Assembly: GCA_965205015.1 (NCBI GenBank)
Contig: OZ242029.1
Coordinates: forward strand, 3,328,001 to 3,392,000
Source: Candidatus Poribacteria bacterium
Lineage (GTDB): Bacteria > Poribacteria > WGA-4E > WGA-3G
Direction: 5' to 3'
Length of the DNA: 64,000 nucleotides
The translations under genes and the position numbers were made by a program. The notes beneath the pieces were generated by a model. That model saw nothing but the letters and a program-made list of their open reading frames with translations, did no database searches and had not been told where the DNA came from. Shown here one piece after another: positions 41,903 through 49,452 of the stretch. Position 1 is the first letter of the stretch. Each line of letters starts with the position of its first letter.

Positions 41903-42670
41903 TTATGCTTCCAGAGGCACTACGTCGGCATAGACGTAGGTGGGTGAAGTGTTCCTGTTTGCGTGAATCTTGTCATTGCTGTCTTTCTGAGAAACAATGT
42001 CTCTCTGGACAACTTTACCCGGTTTCGCGGCAACAGGCGAACTAAACATCGGTCCATCAACAACACATGTATGGAACTCACCGTTTTCACCGAGCGGATC
42101 CACCCCATCGGGTAAATCGGCAAGGAGTTCGGCATCGAACCAACGTCCTGCGAAATCGGCAGGAACCTTGGTCGGATTGAGGGCAGTGATAATGGCACGC
42201 ATGCCGGAAGTGATCATTTTTTCAGCGAGTTGTGTTGTGTTTTCTCCCCATACCGGAAAAATCGGTGTGAAACCGGTTCCGCGTAATTTGTCTTCTCGGT
42301 ATTCACGGATGTCTTCTAAGAACAGATCCCCGAAAGCGAAATGCGATGTTCCCTGATGTTCGGGTAACGCTTCCACTTCAGCGAGAAATTTTCGCATCGC
42401 CTCTTCATAGATCGCATTGGAACAGGGATAGGGGATCGGTATTTCATACAATGGCACTCCAAGTTTCTCCGCTTGCTGTTTGAGCACCCACGCCGGCGTA
42501 GAGTGGATGGAGACGCGATCAAATGTCTTTGTGACAGTCGTAAAAATACCCCGCACCTCGTAGCGTTCCGGCTCCTGACGGAGTGTATGAAGTGCCCATG
42601 CAGAATCTTTGCCCGAGGACCAAGAGACAAAGACTGGGACAGGAGTCGTGTCGTTCGTCTGTTTTGTCAT
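41903..42670 (-). CDS. PP-loop ATP pyrophosphatase, diphthine-ammonia ligase (MJ0570)-like
   Basis: SWSSGKDS, FGDLFLED...YRE and DPLGENGEFHT.V.DGP. Confidence 0.85.
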   Translation of the reverse strand: MTKQTNDTTPVPVFVSWSSGKDSAWALHTLRQEPERYEVRGIFTTVTKTFDRVSIHSTPAWVLKQQAEKLGVPLYEIPIPYPCSNAIYEEAMRKFLAEVEALPEHQGTSHFAFGDLFLEDIREYREDKLRGTGFTPIFPVWGENTTQLAEKMITSGMRAIITALNPTKVPADFAGRWFDAELLADLPDGVDPLGENGEFHTCVVDGPMFSSPVAAKPGKVVQRDIVSQKDSNDKIHANRNTSPTYVYADVVPLEA

Positions 42671-42700: not shown

Positions 42701-43264
42701 CTACAATGCCAAAAAATTGGAGAGTAAACTCTTTCCAGCAGTCGTCAAAATCGACTCTGGATGGAACTGCACGCCCCAAATAGGTAGCGTTTTATGCCGA
42801 AGCCCCATGATTTCATCCTGATCTGTCCAAGCGGTGATCTCAAGGCAATCTGGTAATGTATCCCTTTTTACGATCAGTGAATGGTATCGCGTGGCTTCAA
42901 ATGGATTGTCCAATCCCTCGAAAAGTTCGACCGCATTATGTTCAATCATTGAGGTTTTCCCGTGCATCAACCGGTCTGCTCTAACGACGTCACCACCGAA
43001 TACGTCTCCGATGCACTGGTGACCAAGACAGACCCCCAAAATCGGAACTTTGCCAGCGAAGTGTTTTATTGCATCGTTAGATATACCGGCTTCTTTCGGC
43101 GTGCAAGGACCCGGTGAGATGACAATCCGTTCAGGTTTGAGGGTATCTAAGGCGTCTAATCCTATTTTTCGACTCCGATGCACCTCCAATTCAGCACCGA
43201 GTTCACCGAGATACTGCACTAAATTATAGGTGAAGGAGTCGTAGTTATCAATCATTAAGACCAT
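42701..43264 (-). CDS. trpG: Anthranilate/aminodeoxychorismate synthase glutamine amidotransferase subunit
   Basis: [30 protein letters not shown] and VQFHPES. Confidence 0.92.
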
Positions 43265-43295: not shown

Positions 43296-44798
43296 TCACA
43301 ATAGAAAACCCTGTTCTGCTAAAGCAATGGCACTGAGCATAGCTCGCGCTTTACTCAAGGTTTCGTAATACTCCGTTTCAGGCACAGAATCCGCGACAAT
43401 GCCAGCACCCGCTTGCACATAAGCCGTGCTATCTTTGATAACCGCCGTTCGGATCGTAATCGCTGTGTCTGTGCTGCCAGAGAAACTGAAGTACCCGACC
43501 GCGCCTCCGTAAGTCCCGCGGCGTGTCGATTCGAGTTCATCAATGATTTCCATTGCCCGGACCTTCGGGGCACCTGAAAGGGTGCCTGCGGGGAGGCAGG
43601 CTCGGATCACATCGAAAGCCGTGACATGCTCACGGAGTTTCCCGATCACGTGTGAAACGATGTGCATCACGTGTGAGAAGCGTTCAACTATCATGAGATC
43701 GGTCACTTCAACCGTCCGATACTCGCAGACGCGCCCGAAGTCGTTGCGTCCTAAATCAACGAGCATGACGTGCTCTGCGCGTTCTTTCGGATCTGCGAGG
43801 AGTGACCGTTCCATCTCAAGGTCCTCCTCCGTCGTTTTGCCACGCGGGCGAGTTCCGGCAAGTGGGCGATGCTGAGCGAGTCCATCCTCTACCCGTACCA
43901 TCATCTCCGGGGAGGCACCTACAATATCAAAACTCTCCAGTTTCAGATAATACATGTAAGGCGATGGGTTGACGATCCGCAATGCACGATACACCTCGAA
44001 TGAATCTGCAGATACTGGACAACTCAACCGCTGCGAAATTACCGCTTGGATGATGTCGCCTGCGGCGATGTATTCTTTCGCACGCCGAACCGCGGTTTCG
44101 TAGCCTGACTTTGTGAAATTCGATTGCGGATCGGATAGGATTTCATCATACCCGTCTTGAGACTCGCTACGCGCGCTGCCGACATGCGCTTCGGAAGTCG
44201 CTGTGAGTTTCTCGACCAATGCCTCAATTTTCGCAAGAGCCTCCGCATAAGCCGCGTCCACGTCTCCATCAATATGCGCGTTCGCCACAACCTTGATCTG
44301 ATGGTTCACATGATCGAATATCAAGAGCGTTTCGGCAATCATGAAGAAACAGTCGGGCAGCTGCAGATCATCTTCGGTATTATCTGGCAGTTCCTCGACG
44401 AACCGCACCATATCGTAACTCATATAACCCACCGCGCCCCCGTGAAATTTGGGTAGTTCTGCATTGTGAACAGGTCGGTAATCCTGCATCAATTCCTCGA
44501 GCGCACGCAACGGATCTTCATATTCCTGAACGACGGTTTCGCCTTTTTCCAAGTACTCAATGGTAACCTGATGCCCTTTACTCTGGAAAAGCACTGAGGG
44601 TTGGCTCCCCAAAAAAGAGTAACGCGCAAGATTTTCACCCCCCTCAACGCTTTCAAGCAAGAACACATAATTATCTGGCATCAACTTGTAAAAAGCAGAC
44701 ACCGGTGTCTCCATATCCGCCAAAATCGATCGGTATACCGGTATCGTGTTTCCTGATTTCGCTGCCTCGCGAAAATCTTCCAACGTAGGATAATACAT
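43296..44798 (-). CDS. trpE: Anthranilate synthase component I
   Basis: LLES Trp-feedback motif, NPSPYM, EHVMLVDLGRND and PAGTLSGAPK.RAM. Confidence 0.95.
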   Translation of the reverse strand: MYYPTLEDFREAAKSGNTIPVYRSILADMETPVSAFYKLMPDNYVFLLESVEGGENLARYSFLGSQPSVLFQSKGHQVTIEYLEKGETVVQEYEDPLRALEELMQDYRPVHNAELPKFHGGAVGYMSYDMVRFVEELPDNTEDDLQLPDCFFMIAETLLIFDHVNHQIKVVANAHIDGDVDAAYAEALAKIEALVEKLTATSEAHVGSARSESQDGYDEILSDPQSNFTKSGYETAVRRAKEYIAAGDIIQAVISQRLSCPVSADSFEVYRALRIVNPSPYMYYLKLESFDIVGASPEMMVRVEDGLAQHRPLAGTRPRGKTTEEDLEMERSLLADPKERAEHVMLVDLGRNDFGRVCEYRTVEVTDLMIVERFSHVMHIVSHVIGKLREHVTAFDVIRACLPAGTLSGAPKVRAMEIIDELESTRRGTYGGAVGYFSFSGSTDTAITIRTAVIKDSTAYVQAGAGIVADSVPETEYYETLSKARAMLSAIALAEQGFLL

Positions 44799-44895
44799 AT
44801 TTTAAATTTTCCTTGCGGTTCGGTCAGGTGCGTCTGGAATTCACGTTCTTATCCGTATGTCCGCCTGCGTATTGTTGCAGGCTCGGTTTTTTAAA
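44796..44895 (-). repeat. Family B element ending at the trpE start codon
   Basis: GAGCCTGCAACAATACGCAGGC...GAACCGCAAGGAAAATTTAAAATATG. Confidence 0.7.
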
Positions 44896-44914
44896 CTGAC
44901 GAACCTATTAGGGT

Positions 44915-45295
44915 CTAATAGACCGCATCTTCATCGAAAACCTTTTCGCCTACGATCTGCGTTGATTCTCCGTCGGGGGAAACTTCTCGAAAGAAGCAGG
45001 AACGATAACCGACATGGCACGCCGCTACTTTCTGCTCAACCTTTATGAGCAGGGCATCACCATCACAATCTATTGCAATAGATTTAACCGTCTGCGTATG
45101 CCCTGAAGTCTCCCCCTTTATCCACAACTTTTGGCGGGAACGGCTCCAGAAGCAGACGCGCCCTGTATTCAGCGTTTCCTTTATCGCTTCTGCGTTCATG
45201 TAACCTAACATCAGGATTTCGTTATTTGTGTCATCTTGAATGATTGCTGCGACTAAACCATCGCGGTCGTACTTAATTTCCGATAGAATTCTCAT
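44915..45295 (-). CDS. hisI: Phosphoribosyl-AMP cyclohydrolase
   Basis: [22 protein letters not shown] and [10 protein letters not shown]. Confidence 0.95.
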
Positions 45296-45337
45296 CTGGG
45301 TTCTCCTTTACAAATTTTGTCAATCTGCGAACTTTGC

Positions 45338-45378
45338 AAAAAAAATACCTTATGCCGCCGGGATCGGTGTGCATAAGG
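45338..45378 (-). terminator. Attenuator (intrinsic terminator) in the hisI-trpE-trpG leader
   Basis: CCTTATGC-15 nt-GCATAAGG followed by TATTTTTTTT on the minus strand, ~40 nt before hisI. Confidence 0.7.
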
Positions 45379-45429
45379 CTTCAACAGGACTTAAAAATAA
45401 AAAGTGACGATTTTCAATTTCTATTTCGA

Positions 45430-45531
45430 TTATCTGTTCGAGCGCACACTCCCCCGCAAGCCATTGGACCGCCACCAATGCCAATGGTTAGATATGCGAT
45501 GCAAGCTGGAGTGTGAACCTAAAAATGCCAT
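45430..45531 (-). CDS. His/Trp-rich attenuator leader peptide (33 aa, MAFLGSHSSLHRISNHWHWWRSNGLRGSVRSNR)
   Basis: Translated by hand. SD-like AAGGA/AAGG upstream; 4 His and 3 Trp codons; lies between a promoter and a terminator. Confidence 0.75.
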   Translation of the reverse strand: MAFLGSHSSLHRISNHWHWWRSNGLRGSVRSNR

Positions 45532-45596
45532 CCTTTTTCCTTCTCAACAAGGGTTGATGATTACCAAATCTTTGGATGTATCCACATCTACTATTA

Positions 45597-45625
45597 ATAA
45601 TAACATATCTGTTTTGTATTGTCAA
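45597..45625 (-). promoter_or_regulatory. Sigma-70-type promoter of the leader-hisI-trpE-trpG operon
   Basis: TTGACA-17 nt-TATTAT on the minus strand. Confidence 0.65.
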
Positions 45626-45645
45626 ATATTTTTTCAAAAAAATAT

Positions 45646-45674
45646 TTGCAGAAAATGGCACAACGTGATATACT
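45646..45674 (+). promoter_or_regulatory. Sigma-70-type promoter of the riboswitch operon
   Basis: TTGCAG-17 nt-TATACT with an extended -10 TG. Confidence 0.55.
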
Positions 45675-45702
45675 ATATACATTACAATTAAATAAACGAA
45701 CG

Positions 45703-45860
45703 ATTCAGGTGCCGAATTACGGAGAATAGGGAAGCGCGGTGAGAATCCGCCACGGCCCCGCCACTGTGAACGATCGCAAGTATCCGCTGAAAAAACCACT
45801 GTCAAATCACTGATGGGAAGGTCCAGCGGAAGGATCGGAAGTCAGGAGACCTGCCTGAAT
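45703..45860 (+). ncRNA. Cobalamin riboswitch
   Basis: ATTCAGGTG...AATAGGGAA.CGCGGTGAGAATCCGC...GCCCCCGCCACTGTG...CCACTG...TGGGAAGG...AAGTCAGGAGACCTGCCTGAAT (B12 box and closing stem). Confidence 0.93.
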
Positions 45861-46000
45861 TGTGTTTCACGCATCTGCTTTCGCGGGAAAGCGGTGGAAC
45901 GGAACACAGTATCCTGTCAAACGAAAAAGAAATTCTCACATAAGAGATGGAATTCTCTCACACAGTTACAGGATATGCCTTACACAGAGTGTCGCTTCCG

Positions 46001-46037
46001 CCCCTGTCTTTCCGATGAAAGCAGGGGTTTTTTGTTT
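46001..46037 (+). terminator. Riboswitch-associated intrinsic terminator
   Basis: CCCCTGTCTTTC-CGAT-GAAAGCAGGGG followed by TTTTTTGTTT, just before the SD GGAGG. Confidence 0.7.
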
Positions 46038-46054
46038 CATTACGGAGGTTTTTA

Positions 46055-47410
46055 ATGAACAAAGTTGTAGCGGCGCGGCTCGCAAGCGCGTCTCAAAAAG
46101 TCGCTCGTCGGCACTTCTCGTGTTATTCACTCCTACTTATCGGTGCGATCCTTTTCACACTCCTCGTGCGTCCCACCTTTGGACAAACAGAGGCCCCAAA
46201 CGCGGCAGTTGTCATAAATGCCTTAACGCATCCCGATCTGGGCATCACCGCCTCGCTCTCACTCATCAATCTGACGGAGCCTAATGAGAGACGGGCTGTT
46301 GACAATGAAATACTCCGCATCGGCTTTGATCCGATATTACGGCGGCGCGCAATTGGTCTCTCTATTTACGGGCATCTCGCCTATGTCACGAGTTTCAACT
46401 TGCCCATCACTGGCGAAACAAGTTCCGGCGACAACATCTATATTATTAACTTGGAAGATCGAGAGTTTGTTGGCGAAATTCCAATCCAAGCGGGCACAAC
46501 GCCGCAGCAAATCGCCTTGGTCAGTGATCAGAAGCTATATGTCACCTGTGCCGCAACGCATGAGGTACACGTCGTTGACATTCCGAATCGCAATGTAATA
46601 AAGGTCCTCACCGGTTCCTTCAACAAACCGACCGGTATCACACGCCTCAATGGCAAAGCCTACGTCGCGAACCCCGCATGGGAGTGGGATCCGGTTGCAC
46701 GGAAAACGACCTATTATGATAGCAGTGTCACAGTGATTGATACGCAGACAGACATCATATTAAAATCCATTCCGGTGCCGACAAATGCAGGGGCGATCAT
46801 CAACGACAACGAATCCACCGTTATTGTCAAGACAACGGGTAATTACAACGATGTCCTGGGGCATCTCGTTCTGATTGACGCAACTACCGATGAGATTATC
46901 GAAACGGTTAAGCTCGGTTTCACGCCTGGTGCCTCTGCCCTTAATTCAGAAAAACAGTTGTTTATCCAAGGCAGTTGGCAAAACCCCGGCTTACTCATCT
47001 ACGATATTGCAGCACAAAACTGGATCCGTGACGAAGATGACACGATCACCAACTTCAGTAACAATGCAGATACACCTATCAGTGGTGGACTGACTTTTGC
47101 ACCCGATGGAAATCTCTATATCATCCAACCCGACTGGTCGGGCGGTGGACAGGATTTCGTTCGCGTCATGGACGTTGCCGATGCCTCTCTCCTGCGATCC
47201 TATCACGTTGGACCCGCTGGCTCTATTTTGGGGTTCGCAACGATTACACCGCGACGTGAAGACATCAACAATGATGGGTTCATCAACATAAAAGATATGA
47301 TAATCGCAGGACGTTTTCTCGGCGACGAAGGTCCCGGGATACGTGCCGATGTCAATGGAGACGAAGTGGTGAATATTCTTGACTTGGTGCTGATCGATCA
47401 GGGACGCTAA
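46055..47410 (+). CDS. Secreted YncE/YVTN-type beta-propeller with C-terminal dockerin-like repeat; candidate corrinoid-binding protein
   Basis: Signal-like N-terminus, KLYVT/KAYVAN and VTVIDTQTD repeats, C-terminal DINNDGFINIKD...ADVNGDEVVNILDLV; first gene after the B12 riboswitch. Confidence 0.75.
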   Translation: MNKVVAARLASASQKVARRHFSCYSLLLIGAILFTLLVRPTFGQTEAPNAAVVINALTHPDLGITASLSLINLTEPNERRAVDNEILRIGFDPILRRRAIGLSIYGHLAYVTSFNLPITGETSSGDNIYIINLEDREFVGEIPIQAGTTPQQIALVSDQKLYVTCAATHEVHVVDIPNRNVIKVLTGSFNKPTGITRLNGKAYVANPAWEWDPVARKTTYYDSSVTVIDTQTDIILKSIPVPTNAGAIINDNESTVIVKTTGNYNDVLGHLVLIDATTDEIIETVKLGFTPGASALNSEKQLFIQGSWQNPGLLIYDIAAQNWIRDEDDTITNFSNNADTPISGGLTFAPDGNLYIIQPDWSGGGQDFVRVMDVADASLLRSYHVGPAGSILGFATITPRREDINNDGFINIKDMIIAGRFLGDEGPGIRADVNGDEVVNILDLVLIDQGR

Positions 47411-47436: not shown

Positions 47437-49452
47437 ATGGTCATCGCGCATCGGTTATCGGTTATCAGAAGAATAATCGTCAGCCATCAGCAATCAACTA
47501 AAAGCCGACTGCTGATGGCTGATGGCTATAAAGTAGCGCAGGTCTTGTGGGGCTTGCCGCTACTCCTTTCTTTGCTCTGTTGCGCTTCAGCTCCCAAAGC
47601 GGAACCTATCTCATGGGAGGTAACGTTTTTTTCCTTGGGGGCAAAGGTGCAATTTGGAACAACAGCACCGATACGAAACATAAAAGCCTTTAATCCTGAC
47701 GATGTGAGGGTCGCGCAACTCAACTTTCCTGTGCCACCTCGGCAGACGGAATCCCTTTATTTTCAGTGGAGCGAAGGAGAAACCTATCGGTTTGAGGCGA
47801 CCTTATCCACGGGGAACAGTATCGCTCAAAGCGTGACGGCACCGCGAACATACACACAGGGAAATTTAGAGATTGCTCTACCCTATGGTGCCGCGATTGA
47901 GACGGATTTAAGTAAGCCATCAGAAATTGATCAGAAGGCACTTGTTTTGCATGAAAGTGAAATGACAGCCACGGTCCTCGTCACAAACGGGAACGTCCCA
48001 ACGACCTTTGATCTCGAACTTTGTCTACCATCAACCGTCACAGCCGTTCGCTTTCCAGAAGATTGGAAGACAAAAAAAATGGAGTCGAAAACGTGCCTCT
48101 CCGTCACCAGTAGACTTGGTGTTGCATCGGAGGTGTGGTACCGTGAGTTAGTGTTGAAAACATCTGCGGCAAACCCATTGGATAGACAAGAGATTTCAGG
48201 CACTGTCCGTTTCACAACGGATGCAGGACAGATATGGGAACAACAAGCGACCGTGCAACTGCGGATCGCAACTGTTTCTGAGATTGCCGAACACCTCTCC
48301 ATCGAATCCATTGAGATGCCTACAGACGCAACGGGGACGGTCGATCCGAAGCAGCGAGAAAATACCATCTACTATCCACGCCCCTTATTCAGTTGGCTCC
48401 AAACATCACAGACCAATGCGTTCGAGCCGGTAACTTATCAGACAGTCCGACTCCGCAACGGCGGTGAAGAAACAATCCACGTGGTTGTGTCTTCAACGAA
48501 CACGGATACGAAAAGTGGCGAAACTATCCCCTTTCTTGCACCTCCAGAGACAACGAACGGTGGGGTGAATCAGAGCGTAGCGTTTGCGAGTCTGCCGGGT
48601 GGCACGGTTACAGAAATTCCGCTGCCTCTCTATTTCCATCCAGTGTATTTAAGTCAGGGTAAAATGGAGCAGGCGATCCCTGGGGCGTATAAACGTGACG
48701 TTACGGTAAAGGTTTGGGGAAGCGATGCGACAATTCTTCGCCAACAACGTCCACTTCACCTAATCGTTCCAAACCAGCAAGCGTTGCTCGTGAGTCTATT
48801 GGCAATCATCAGCAGTTGCATCGGTTTTGCAATTGTCTTGCGGTTCCATGAGCGACTTTTCGCGGGTTTCACAACAAAGCATCTCATTGTGATTGCCCTG
48901 TTCAGCACAACGGTTTTTGTGGCGGTGATGGTTCCGTCAACCCTGTTCCTTAATTTAGTCCGTGCCATCTTAGGTCCGTTCTCTGTACTGCTAATTGGCT
49001 TAATCAACGAGACGCTCTACTACGCCTTATTGACAGCATTGCTGATTTACATCACTGGAGACCCCAGAAACGCTGAGACGACAAATCATGTCCGCGTGAA
49101 AGGGAGTGGTGTAATCCTGCTTGTCTCTGCGGTACGTCTGCTTCTTGGAGGCGTAACGTTCGGGCTTTTCACACCGATGGCAATCGTCTATACCGGCACA
49201 AGTGTCCTCTTATTGGAAACGGGATTCTTACTTGTGCGGGATCGCCATCTACTGGCGTGGGCAGTCGTATTAGGCATCTGCGACGCCCTCTCTGGTTATG
49301 TCGATTTGCAGCTTTCTATACTCTTCTATCGGCTTTTCTACGCTGATTGGTATATTGTTCTCCGAATTTTAATAGAGGGGTTCGTCTATACATTTATCGG
49401 TGTCCTTCTCGGGGCGCGGTTGGGGAGAGGTTTATGGCGTGTAGCAGAATAG
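47437..49452 (+). CDS. Large extracytoplasmic domain fused to a C-terminal multi-TM ECF S-component-like domain
   Basis: Signal/lipobox-like LLCC, beta-rich region, then ~7 TM helices starting near FTTKHLIVIALF. The 5' end overlaps a family A repeat, so the true start may be 47515. Confidence 0.6.
   Translation: MVIAHRLSVIRRIIVSHQQSTKSRLLMADGYKVAQVLWGLPLLLSLLCCASAPKAEPISWEVTFFSLGAKVQFGTTAPIRNIKAFNPDDVRVAQLNFPVPPRQTESLYFQWSEGETYRFEATLSTGNSIAQSVTAPRTYTQGNLEIALPYGAAIETDLSKPSEIDQKALVLHESEMTATVLVTNGNVPTTFDLELCLPSTVTAVRFPEDWKTKKMESKTCLSVTSRLGVASEVWYRELVLKTSAANPLDRQEISGTVRFTTDAGQIWEQQATVQLRIATVSEIAEHLSIESIEMPTDATGTVDPKQRENTIYYPRPLFSWLQTSQTNAFEPVTYQTVRLRNGGEETIHVVVSSTNTDTKSGETIPFLAPPETTNGGVNQSVAFASLPGGTVTEIPLPLYFHPVYLSQGKMEQAIPGAYKRDVTVKVWGSDATILRQQRPLHLIVPNQQALLVSLLAIISSCIGFAIVLRFHERLFAGFTTKHLIVIALFSTTVFVAVMVPSTLFLNLVRAILGPFSVLLIGLINETLYYALLTALLIYITGDPRNAETTNHVRVKGSGVILLVSAVRLLLGGVTFGLFTPMAIVYTGTSVLLLETGFLLVRDRHLLAWAVVLGICDALSGYVDLQLSILFYRLFYADWYIVLRILIEGFVYTFIGVLLGARLGRGLWRVAE

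Follow-up and report, generated by a model that had tools for sequence, protein, structure and literature searches.

A candidate leader-peptide attenuator with interleaved tryptophan and histidine codons ahead of the hisI-trpE-trpG operon of Candidatus Poribacteria

The leader region and the operon behind it

The 64-kb stretch of Candidatus Poribacteria DNA analysed here, referred to below as the window, carries the genes hisI, trpE and trpG behind an unannotated leader region that has the layout of a ribosome-mediated transcription attenuator, with codons for both tryptophan (Trp) and histidine (His) in a short leader peptide. All leader and operon coordinates given below are on the minus strand of the window. 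The first structural gene, hisI (44915..45295), encodes a phosphoribosyl-AMP cyclohydrolase of 126 residues (PF01502, E 3.9e-37). It is followed by trpE (43296..44798), which encodes anthranilate synthase component I (500 residues; PF00425 and PF04715), and by trpG (42701..43264), which encodes the glutamine amidotransferase component II (187 residues; PF00117). A protein of 255 residues with a Diphthami_syn_2 ATP-binding domain (PF01902) is encoded 30 nt past trpG, at 41903..42670 on the same strand, and may be a further member of the operon.

Upstream of hisI, a sigma-70-type promoter occupies 45597..45625, with TTGACA at 45625..45620, a 17-nt spacer and TATTAT at 45602..45597; it agrees with the consensus at 11 of 12 positions and has a TG before the -10 element. 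The leader-peptide open reading frame (ORF) follows at 45430..45531. It has 33 codons and a TAA stop, and its product is MAFLGSHSSLHRISNHWHWWRSNGLRGSVRSNR, in which His is found at positions 7, 11, 16 and 18 and Trp at positions 17, 19 and 20. The control codons His16-Trp17-His18-Trp19-Trp20 (CAT TGG CAT TGG TGG, 45472..45486) give the string HWHWW, which is the sole five-residue run of Trp and His with at least three Trp in all six frames of the window; a run of this kind arose in 1 of 200 block shuffles (mean 0.005). Between the leader ORF and hisI lies an intrinsic terminator (45338..45379), made up of a stem-loop at 45379..45347 (GCCTTATGC and GCATAAGGT separated by 15 nt, -17.7 kcal/mol) and a T-run at 45345..45338. 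The sequence-only reading of this locus had described the same succession, from a TTGACA-17-TATTAT promoter through a 33-codon ORF with HWHWW and a terminator to hisI-trpE-trpG, and every part of it is present in the window. An internal promoter between the terminator and hisI is unlikely, as inspection of the window by eye found a TTGACA at about 45322 with no suitably spaced -10 element.

RNA libraries (10 runs) were also searched. Only 5-9% of the sampled words were present in them, and four runs gave contigs of relatives that are 90-99% alike. Two assembled contigs lie over the leader, X5 (301 nt) corresponding to 45334..45589 and X7 to 45430..45585; contigs of this type show no starts, ends, strand or level.

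Conservation across Candidatus Poribacteria

The closest TrpE to that of the window, at 80% identity, belongs to a Candidatus Poribacteria metagenome-assembled genome (locus L001), where a 31-codon ORF, MKYIRSHSSLHRNSNHWHWWCSNSIKEECAR, is followed by the same GGAGTGTGCGC box and the same terminator ahead of hisI-trpE. Across the phylum, HisI was matched in 170 of 175 genomes, mostly with one match per genome. From the 97 hisI loci examined (the window, L001 and L082-L176), 91 were kept (the window, L001, L082-L150 and L157-L176), and L151-L156, where HisI is a distant homologue (about 40% identity) and the neighbourhood lacks trpE, were set aside. The trpE gene lies on the same strand directly after hisI at 89 of the 91 loci, and at the other two (L106 and L111) the sequence ends too early to tell. 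Homologous leader ORFs with their Trp/His codons were found at 84 of the 91 loci, together with the terminator and the antiterminator described below. Conservation in relatives had been named as a check on the sequence-only reading, and it comes out in favour of that reading.

No leader was found at the remaining seven loci. At L126 and L143 the available flank is only 110 and 59 nt long, respectively; L141 and L142 have no recognisable leader element upstream of hisI; the other three are L133, L162 and L170. An inverted-repeat insertion stands in place of the leader at L133, and G+C-rich repeat arrays occupy the leader position at L162 and L170. Extra DNA of 100-300 nt is also seen between the attenuator and hisI at L082, L086, L089, L102, L157, L160, L161, L115, L118 and L120, and a 38-nt insert right after the leader stop codon is common to L102 and one RNA contig.

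The leader peptides are almost wholly divergent between clades (MAFLGSHSSLHRISNHWHWWRSN..., MQTLNRQPQFQIVSHHWHWWH..., MKFSNLLLHSNTATHNWHWWHS..., MPARIHTHGILWRHWHWRSE..., MNRLAPWAHRLGRWWWHWRGH...), with retention of the Trp/His cluster. This cluster reads SNHWHWW(R/Q/H/C) in the close clades and SHHWHWW(H/W/R), THNWHWWH or SHRWHWWH in the middle ones, while the distant clades have WRHWHWR, GHWHWGW, WWWHWRGH, HRHWRR, QHFWR or FHHWC-stop. Its near-fixed core is Trp17-His18-Trp19-Trp20, the codons TGG CAT TGG TGG being near-invariant between clades with otherwise unrelated peptides. The sequence-only reading had listed all four His codons, and the set of control codons has to be narrowed. His18 is near-fixed, and the position of His16 is variable, with Tyr, Asp, Asn or Ala in relatives; His7 and His11 are not control codons, since the His7 codon lies in RNA stem 1 (CACACUCC) and both residues are missing outside the close clades.

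In most of the 84 related leaders, a TTGACA-17/18-TATnAT-like site is found 25-80 nt upstream of the leader ATG. The leaders of L139 and L140 (genomes G061 and G060) are minimal, with 12 codons that end in FHHWC-stop or FHYWC-stop and with the antiterminator 5' strand (box 2, see below) 16 nt past the stop codon; L139 has ATA at the position of the leader ATG.

Given that conservation within the leader peptide is confined to W-H-W-W, the leader might instead be a nascent-peptide arrest sensor, in which WHWW stalls the ribosome through contacts with the exit tunnel, perhaps on free tryptophan as in TnaC, and not through uncharged tRNA. We regard this as highly improbable. The rest of the peptide is unconserved, including its length and the residues near the stop codon, and distant members have their Trp and His residues ordered otherwise (WRHWHW, WWWHW, HRHW and HHW). 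Moreover, the signal downstream is an intrinsic terminator with an antiterminator rather than a Rho-dependent site, and induction by free Trp would be senseless for a biosynthetic operon.

Alternative structures of the leader RNA

The minimum-energy fold of the whole leader (z -2.68) contains a CACACUCC:GGAGUGUG helix, an inner CCAUUGG:CCAAUGG helix and the terminator, and the CACACTCC:GGAGTGTG and CCATTGG:CCAATGG pairings that had been picked out from the letters alone are both found in it. Region 1 (CACACTCC, 45508..45515) is taken from this fold and pairs with region 2 in the absence of a stalled ribosome. Region 2, or box 2 (GCGGGGGAGTGTGCGCT, 45441..45457), is the 5' strand of the antiterminator and lies within the final third of the leader ORF. 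Its GTGTGC core is present in all clades regardless of the reading frame; it is read as GSV in two clades and as EECAR or GVCAR in another, that is, box 2 is kept as RNA in differing frames. Region 3 (AGC..GCACAC..TCCC..GCG, 45356..45380) is made up of the terminator 5' arm and loop and is the partner of region 2. An A+U-rich spacer hairpin (45383..45438), the sequence of which varies between clades, is enclosed within the antiterminator helix.

Folding of the window RNA between a point 13 nt downstream of the last Trp codon and the terminator loop, with the terminator 3' arm omitted, gave the antiterminator form at -34.7 kcal/mol. Three parts of the terminator 5' arm are engaged in this form, namely its bottom (AGC), its top (GC) and the loop, and it is in this truncated RNA, which lacks the 5' part and the terminator 3' arm, that the GGGAGTGTGC/GCACAC-CGA-TCCC pairing of the sequence-only reading appears as the minimum-energy fold. 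With the 3' arm included, the terminator form has -35.4 kcal/mol. The two forms are therefore near-equal in energy, which implies a switch that is decided kinetically.

Covarying stems had been proposed as a further check, and in an RNA alignment of all 84 leaders, running from the Trp cluster to the T-run, both the terminator and the antiterminator helices covary. The terminator helix has 90% of its cells paired, versus 24-50% for slid controls, and shows changes on both sides at 7 of its 11 pairs; its score was reached by none of 500 shuffles. For the antiterminator core, GTGTGC(G/C) with (T/G)GCA(C/T)AC, 96.4% of cells are paired and both sides have changed at 3 of 7 pairs, one of which occurs as G-C, G-U and A-U. 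Its covariation score, too, was reached in 0 of 500 shuffles. Furthermore, alignment column 198 covaries with its terminator partner and with its antiterminator partner, which is what alternative pairing predicts.

The partner by which box 2 would be silenced differs between clades. In clade A, for which 27 of about 52 sequences were analysed, it is CACAC.CC upstream of the control codons, and in clade B, for which 20 of about 25 were analysed, it is the control codons themselves; both pairings are predictions, and neither shows compensatory changes. The region 1:region 2 pairing is retained in the 27 clade-A sequences folded, likewise without compensatory changes.

The placement of these elements relative to the ORF was examined at all 84 loci. 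When each RNA was folded to represent a stalled ribosome before synthesis of the terminator 3' arm, 83 of the 84 gave 6 or more long-range pairs with the 5' arm or the loop of the terminator (mean 14.8 pairs, versus 7.9 with a shuffled partner), and for the most part the antiterminator 5' strand in these folds was located between -26 and +3 relative to the stop codon. At most loci the last Trp codon and the GTGTGC core are 19-25 nt apart, and 0-11 nt separate the core from the stop codon at most, in a spacing table that holds a few regex mis-hits (for example L118, L120, L121 and L132). Five loci depart from the stop-codon geometry, L090, L159, L131, L139 and L140, where the stop lies 13-19 nt ahead of the core.

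Nucleotide-level conservation of box 2, the terminator and TGGCATTGGTGG might suggest that the ORF is untranslated and that the RNA is a protein- or ligand-binding switch, whether TRAP-like, T-box-like or a riboswitch. This too appears very unlikely to us. The ORF is open at 84 loci despite indels and near-total turnover of its sequence, and the distance from its stop codon to box 2 is fixed. A cmscan of 44800..46100 with E up to 10 gave no match to T-box, RF00513 or RF00514, and only two chance-level Rfam hits fall on the leader. The TRAP gene (mtrB, PF02081) was found in none of the 5 closest genomes, with a positive result for the B. subtilis control.

The locus thus combines a short ORF between a promoter and the first amino-acid biosynthetic gene, clustered codons for the amino acids of the operon (W-H-W-W or a related cluster in all clades), an intrinsic terminator that separates the leader ORF from the first structural gene, a conserved antiterminator that excludes the terminator, and a spacing that, apart from the five loci just named, would free region 2 when the ribosome stalls and cover it when the ribosome is at the stop codon. 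Comparative support of this strength indicates that the element is a real ribosome-mediated attenuator. From the elements, their conservation, their covariation and their geometry we infer that the leader is translated, that the ribosome stalls within it and that it responds to either amino acid, as follows.

Transcription would begin at the TTGACA/TATTAT promoter, and a ribosome would translate the 33-codon leader. With charged tRNA-Trp and tRNA-His in ample supply, the ribosome would reach the stop codon and cover region 2 (GGGAGUGUGCGCU, 9-25 nt before the stop), which would pair with region 1 after the ribosome has departed. With region 2 either covered or paired in this way, the terminator hairpin would form and transcription would stop at the U-run before hisI. 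A ribosome stalled at Trp17-His18-Trp19-Trp20, on the other hand, would leave region 2 free, about 18 nt downstream of the A site, to pair with the terminator 5' arm and loop once these are made; the terminator could then not nucleate, resulting in read-through into hisI-trpE-trpG. Given that the stall window has a His codon flanked by Trp codons, slow decoding of His should have the same effect as slow decoding of Trp, and a shortage of His-tRNA should also relieve termination. Such relief would protect the single hisI of the cell from shut-off at times of ample Trp and scarce His.

Histidine codons, hisI and the specificity of the leader

The His codons of the leaders, which were counted by hand, track the presence of hisI in the operon. 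A His no more than two codons from the Trp cluster is found in 81 of the 84 hisI-linked leaders and in 2 of 16 trpE leaders without hisI (Fisher p = 1.7e-12, relatedness ignored), and a His between Trp codons in 74 of the 84 versus 1 of the 16. Of the 16 leaders without hisI, the same phylum contributes 4 and other phyla 12.

Within the phylum, trpE is without an upstream hisI in five genomes. Four of these have a homologous attenuator, and the fifth has a trpS-like ORF abutting trpE. The four leaders carry the clusters NWCWWWR, KRWWYTSW, RRWCHISW and SRWRHID, followed by the same box 2 and terminator, which marks them as homologous to the hisI-linked leaders. For the other phyla, 79 trpE loci were screened for small ORFs with Trp runs up to 350 nt upstream, with loci having less than 150 nt of flank skipped. 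This screen gave 12 Trp-run leaders, none of which has a His within two codons of its cluster.

In a quick, midpoint-rooted TrpE tree of 83 rows, from which rows with fewer than 260 N-terminal residues had been dropped (L157-L176, L087, L106, L108 and L111), the hisI-less genomes sit at two separate places inside the hisI-linked radiation (supports 91-99). This suggests that hisI left the operon twice and that the Trp-His-Trp pattern was lost alongside, and that the hisI-less arrangement is not the primitive state.

The attenuator very probably senses Trp-tRNA. The association of the His codons with hisI indicates that it probably also senses His-tRNA, and the earlier proposal of a single leader for either shortage, or for both, is supported to that degree. 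Our preferred interpretation, which we hold with more confidence than doubt, is that the element is a leader-peptide transcription attenuator of hisI-trpE-trpG, mediated by the ribosome and relieved by a shortage of Trp or of His.

Several observations weigh against this interpretation, or against the strength with which it can be put. Only one His codon, His18, is near-fixed, which would give low sensitivity next to that of hisL with its run of seven His codons. About 72 of 74 leaders have CAT as this central His codon, versus 62-64% CAT among the His codons of neighbouring genes, and hence a constraint at the nucleotide level or plain inheritance may contribute to its conservation; in clade A its third base is paired in the predicted structure. 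Three of the 84 hisI-linked leaders (L129, L136 and L144) have no His near the Trp cluster, and two of the four hisI-less leaders of the phylum retain one His. The association of His with hisI rests on about two independent losses of hisI, as read from a quick midpoint-rooted gene tree with supports of 91-96. No leader was seen directly upstream of hisG, which lies elsewhere with the other his genes and of which only the immediate upstream was inspected. The Shine-Dalgarno sequence is weak in many related leaders. Finally, a passage in PMC1262725 reports that mutating the predicted regulatory codons of the S. coelicolor ilvB leader had no effect, and a convincing-looking leader can evidently fail its test.

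Some of these facts are shared by the main alternative, a Trp-only attenuator in which the His codons play no part in control by His and are passengers that RNA pairing, chance or descent from a duplicated CATTGG unit has preserved. The CAT bias of the central codon, the single near-invariant His and the two hisI-less leaders that retain a His all fit it, as does the presence of the control codons in predicted helices (CCATTGG:CCAATGG and TTGG:CCAA in clade A; UGGCA and GGUG with box 2 in clade B). Nevertheless, the His codon is kept in clades whose control-codon pairing partners differ, and extra flanking His codons appear independently (SHHWHWWH, THNWHWWH, WRHWHWR and HRHWRR). The lack of a nearby His in all 12 Trp-run leaders of the other phyla also speaks against this alternative, and any codon in the stall window should give some sensitivity. 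In E. coli, trp attenuation is partly relieved by arginine starvation, via an Arg codon after two Trp codons. A Trp-only attenuator is, in our judgement, unlikely, albeit a contender of some weight.

Returning to a leader that senses both amino acids, the sequence-only reading had explained it by two pathways that consume phosphoribosyl pyrophosphate (PRPP). This rationale was rejected, since nothing in our analysis supports it and it is not needed. The three enzymes of the operon, HisI, TrpE and TrpG, do not use PRPP themselves. A simpler rationale than the sharing of PRPP is that hisI lies behind a Trp attenuator, an arrangement by which hisI expression in these bacteria would be tied to the supply of tryptophan.

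The leader has the marks of a multivalent attenuator, with codons for two amino acids that are each tied to a gene of the operon (His to hisI, Trp to trpEG). We put at even chances the further proposition that it is a two-input OR gate for two unrelated amino acids, the codon content of which co-evolves with the gene content of the operon. If this is true, a His is retained amid the Trp codons in the lineages with hisI still behind the attenuator, Trp-His-Trp was lost in the two lineages with hisI moved elsewhere, and the phylum holds a natural record of attenuator specificity being reprogrammed by a few codons as a gene joins or leaves an operon. The 84 leaders, together with the natural hisI 'deletion' controls, make a ready-made test of how attenuator specificity evolves and offer compact parts for a two-amino-acid sensor. 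The annotation of the locus is also corrected, as two regulatory features, the leader ORF and the RNA element, are missing from it.

The element resembles trpL of E. coli and Salmonella (RF00513) in having a short leader ORF with a Trp-codon cluster before trpE, regions 1-4 with 1:2, 2:3 and 3:4 pairings, an intrinsic terminator, and a stop codon whose position lets a terminating ribosome mask region 2. Unlike trpL, it is found in Poribacteria, has no sequence or structure match to RF00513, has its three Trp codons interleaved with His and has hisI as its first gene; its antiterminator reaches across a 56-nt spacer hairpin to engage the terminator 5' arm at the bottom, at the top and in the loop. 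With the enterobacterial hisL (RF00514) it shares leader-peptide His codons placed to control a his gene by attenuation. The His run of hisL controls the whole his operon, whereas the Poribacteria leaders have 1-4 His codons mixed with Trp, would control only hisI among the his genes and have no match to RF00514.

Multivalent leaders are known from thrL (Thr and Ile) and ilvL/ivbL (Ile, Leu and Val) of Enterobacteria, in which a shortage of any of the amino acids relieves termination. The likeness is that of one leader peptide with codons for more than one amino acid. The amino acids of thrL and ilvL, however, belong to one branched pathway, whereas Trp and His belong to separate pathways joined only by gene order, and in Poribacteria, unlike in those systems, the codon content of the leader follows the gene content of the operon. 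TRAP in Bacillus and the T-box likewise control trp genes by a choice between terminator and antiterminator; the Poribacteria element, lacking both as noted above, has a conserved translatable ORF instead.

Trp-codon leaders before trp genes have been described outside Proteobacteria in passages of PMC1262725 and PMC2965389, with trp leaders in Actinobacteria among those of PMC1262725. According to a passage in PMC2965389, leader peptides were, at the time of that paper, documented mostly in Proteobacteria, Actinobacteria and a few Firmicutes. In a literature search that covered journals outside subscription, no description was found of a Trp/His leader or of an attenuator in Poribacteria. What the comparisons point to is a new, two-pathway (Trp and His) form of textbook leader-peptide attenuation, conserved across an uncultured, largely sponge-associated and little-studied candidate phylum. 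Its specificity is unusual, with Trp and His codons interleaved in one stall window ahead of an operon of hisI and trpEG.

The gene order itself is found elsewhere. Of the 79 loci from other phyla, 10 have hisI immediately ahead of trpE; they belong to Verrucomicrobiota, Planctomycetota, Actinomycetota and Acidobacteriota, and hisI usually comes there after hisF or a small membrane-protein gene. No Trp/His leader was found upstream of hisI in these 10 loci (L004, L031, L035, L042, L045, L047, L048, L050, L053 and L060).

As for the other his and trp genes, complete relatives (L179-L181; genomes G143, G171 and G155) have hisG well away from hisI, with HisS/HisZ-like ORFs on either side of it. 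The trpD-trpC genes of complete relatives have their own promoter and no Trp-rich leader.

Two features near the leader and the operon were noted in addition. Just upstream of trpE and including its start codon, at 44796..44838, lies a stretch of which 35-40 nt are common, at 90% identity or more, to many high-depth contigs from four RNA libraries. These contigs have a summed depth of up to about 16,000 and flanks that are unrelated on both sides, and the window has a single copy of the 30-nt core of the stretch. A shared 5' leader or ribosome-binding motif might account for the stretch, as might chance matches. On the opposite side of the leader promoter, and divergent from it, a full-length cobalamin riboswitch (RF00174, 113.6 bits, E 2.2e-29) occupies 45690..45872 on the plus strand. 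It is followed on that strand by a gene for a 451-residue dockerin-domain protein that also matches DUF5074 below threshold (46055..47410), and then by one for a 671-residue multi-pass membrane protein without a Pfam family (47437..49452). These two proteins could be a B12-regulated capture or uptake pair.

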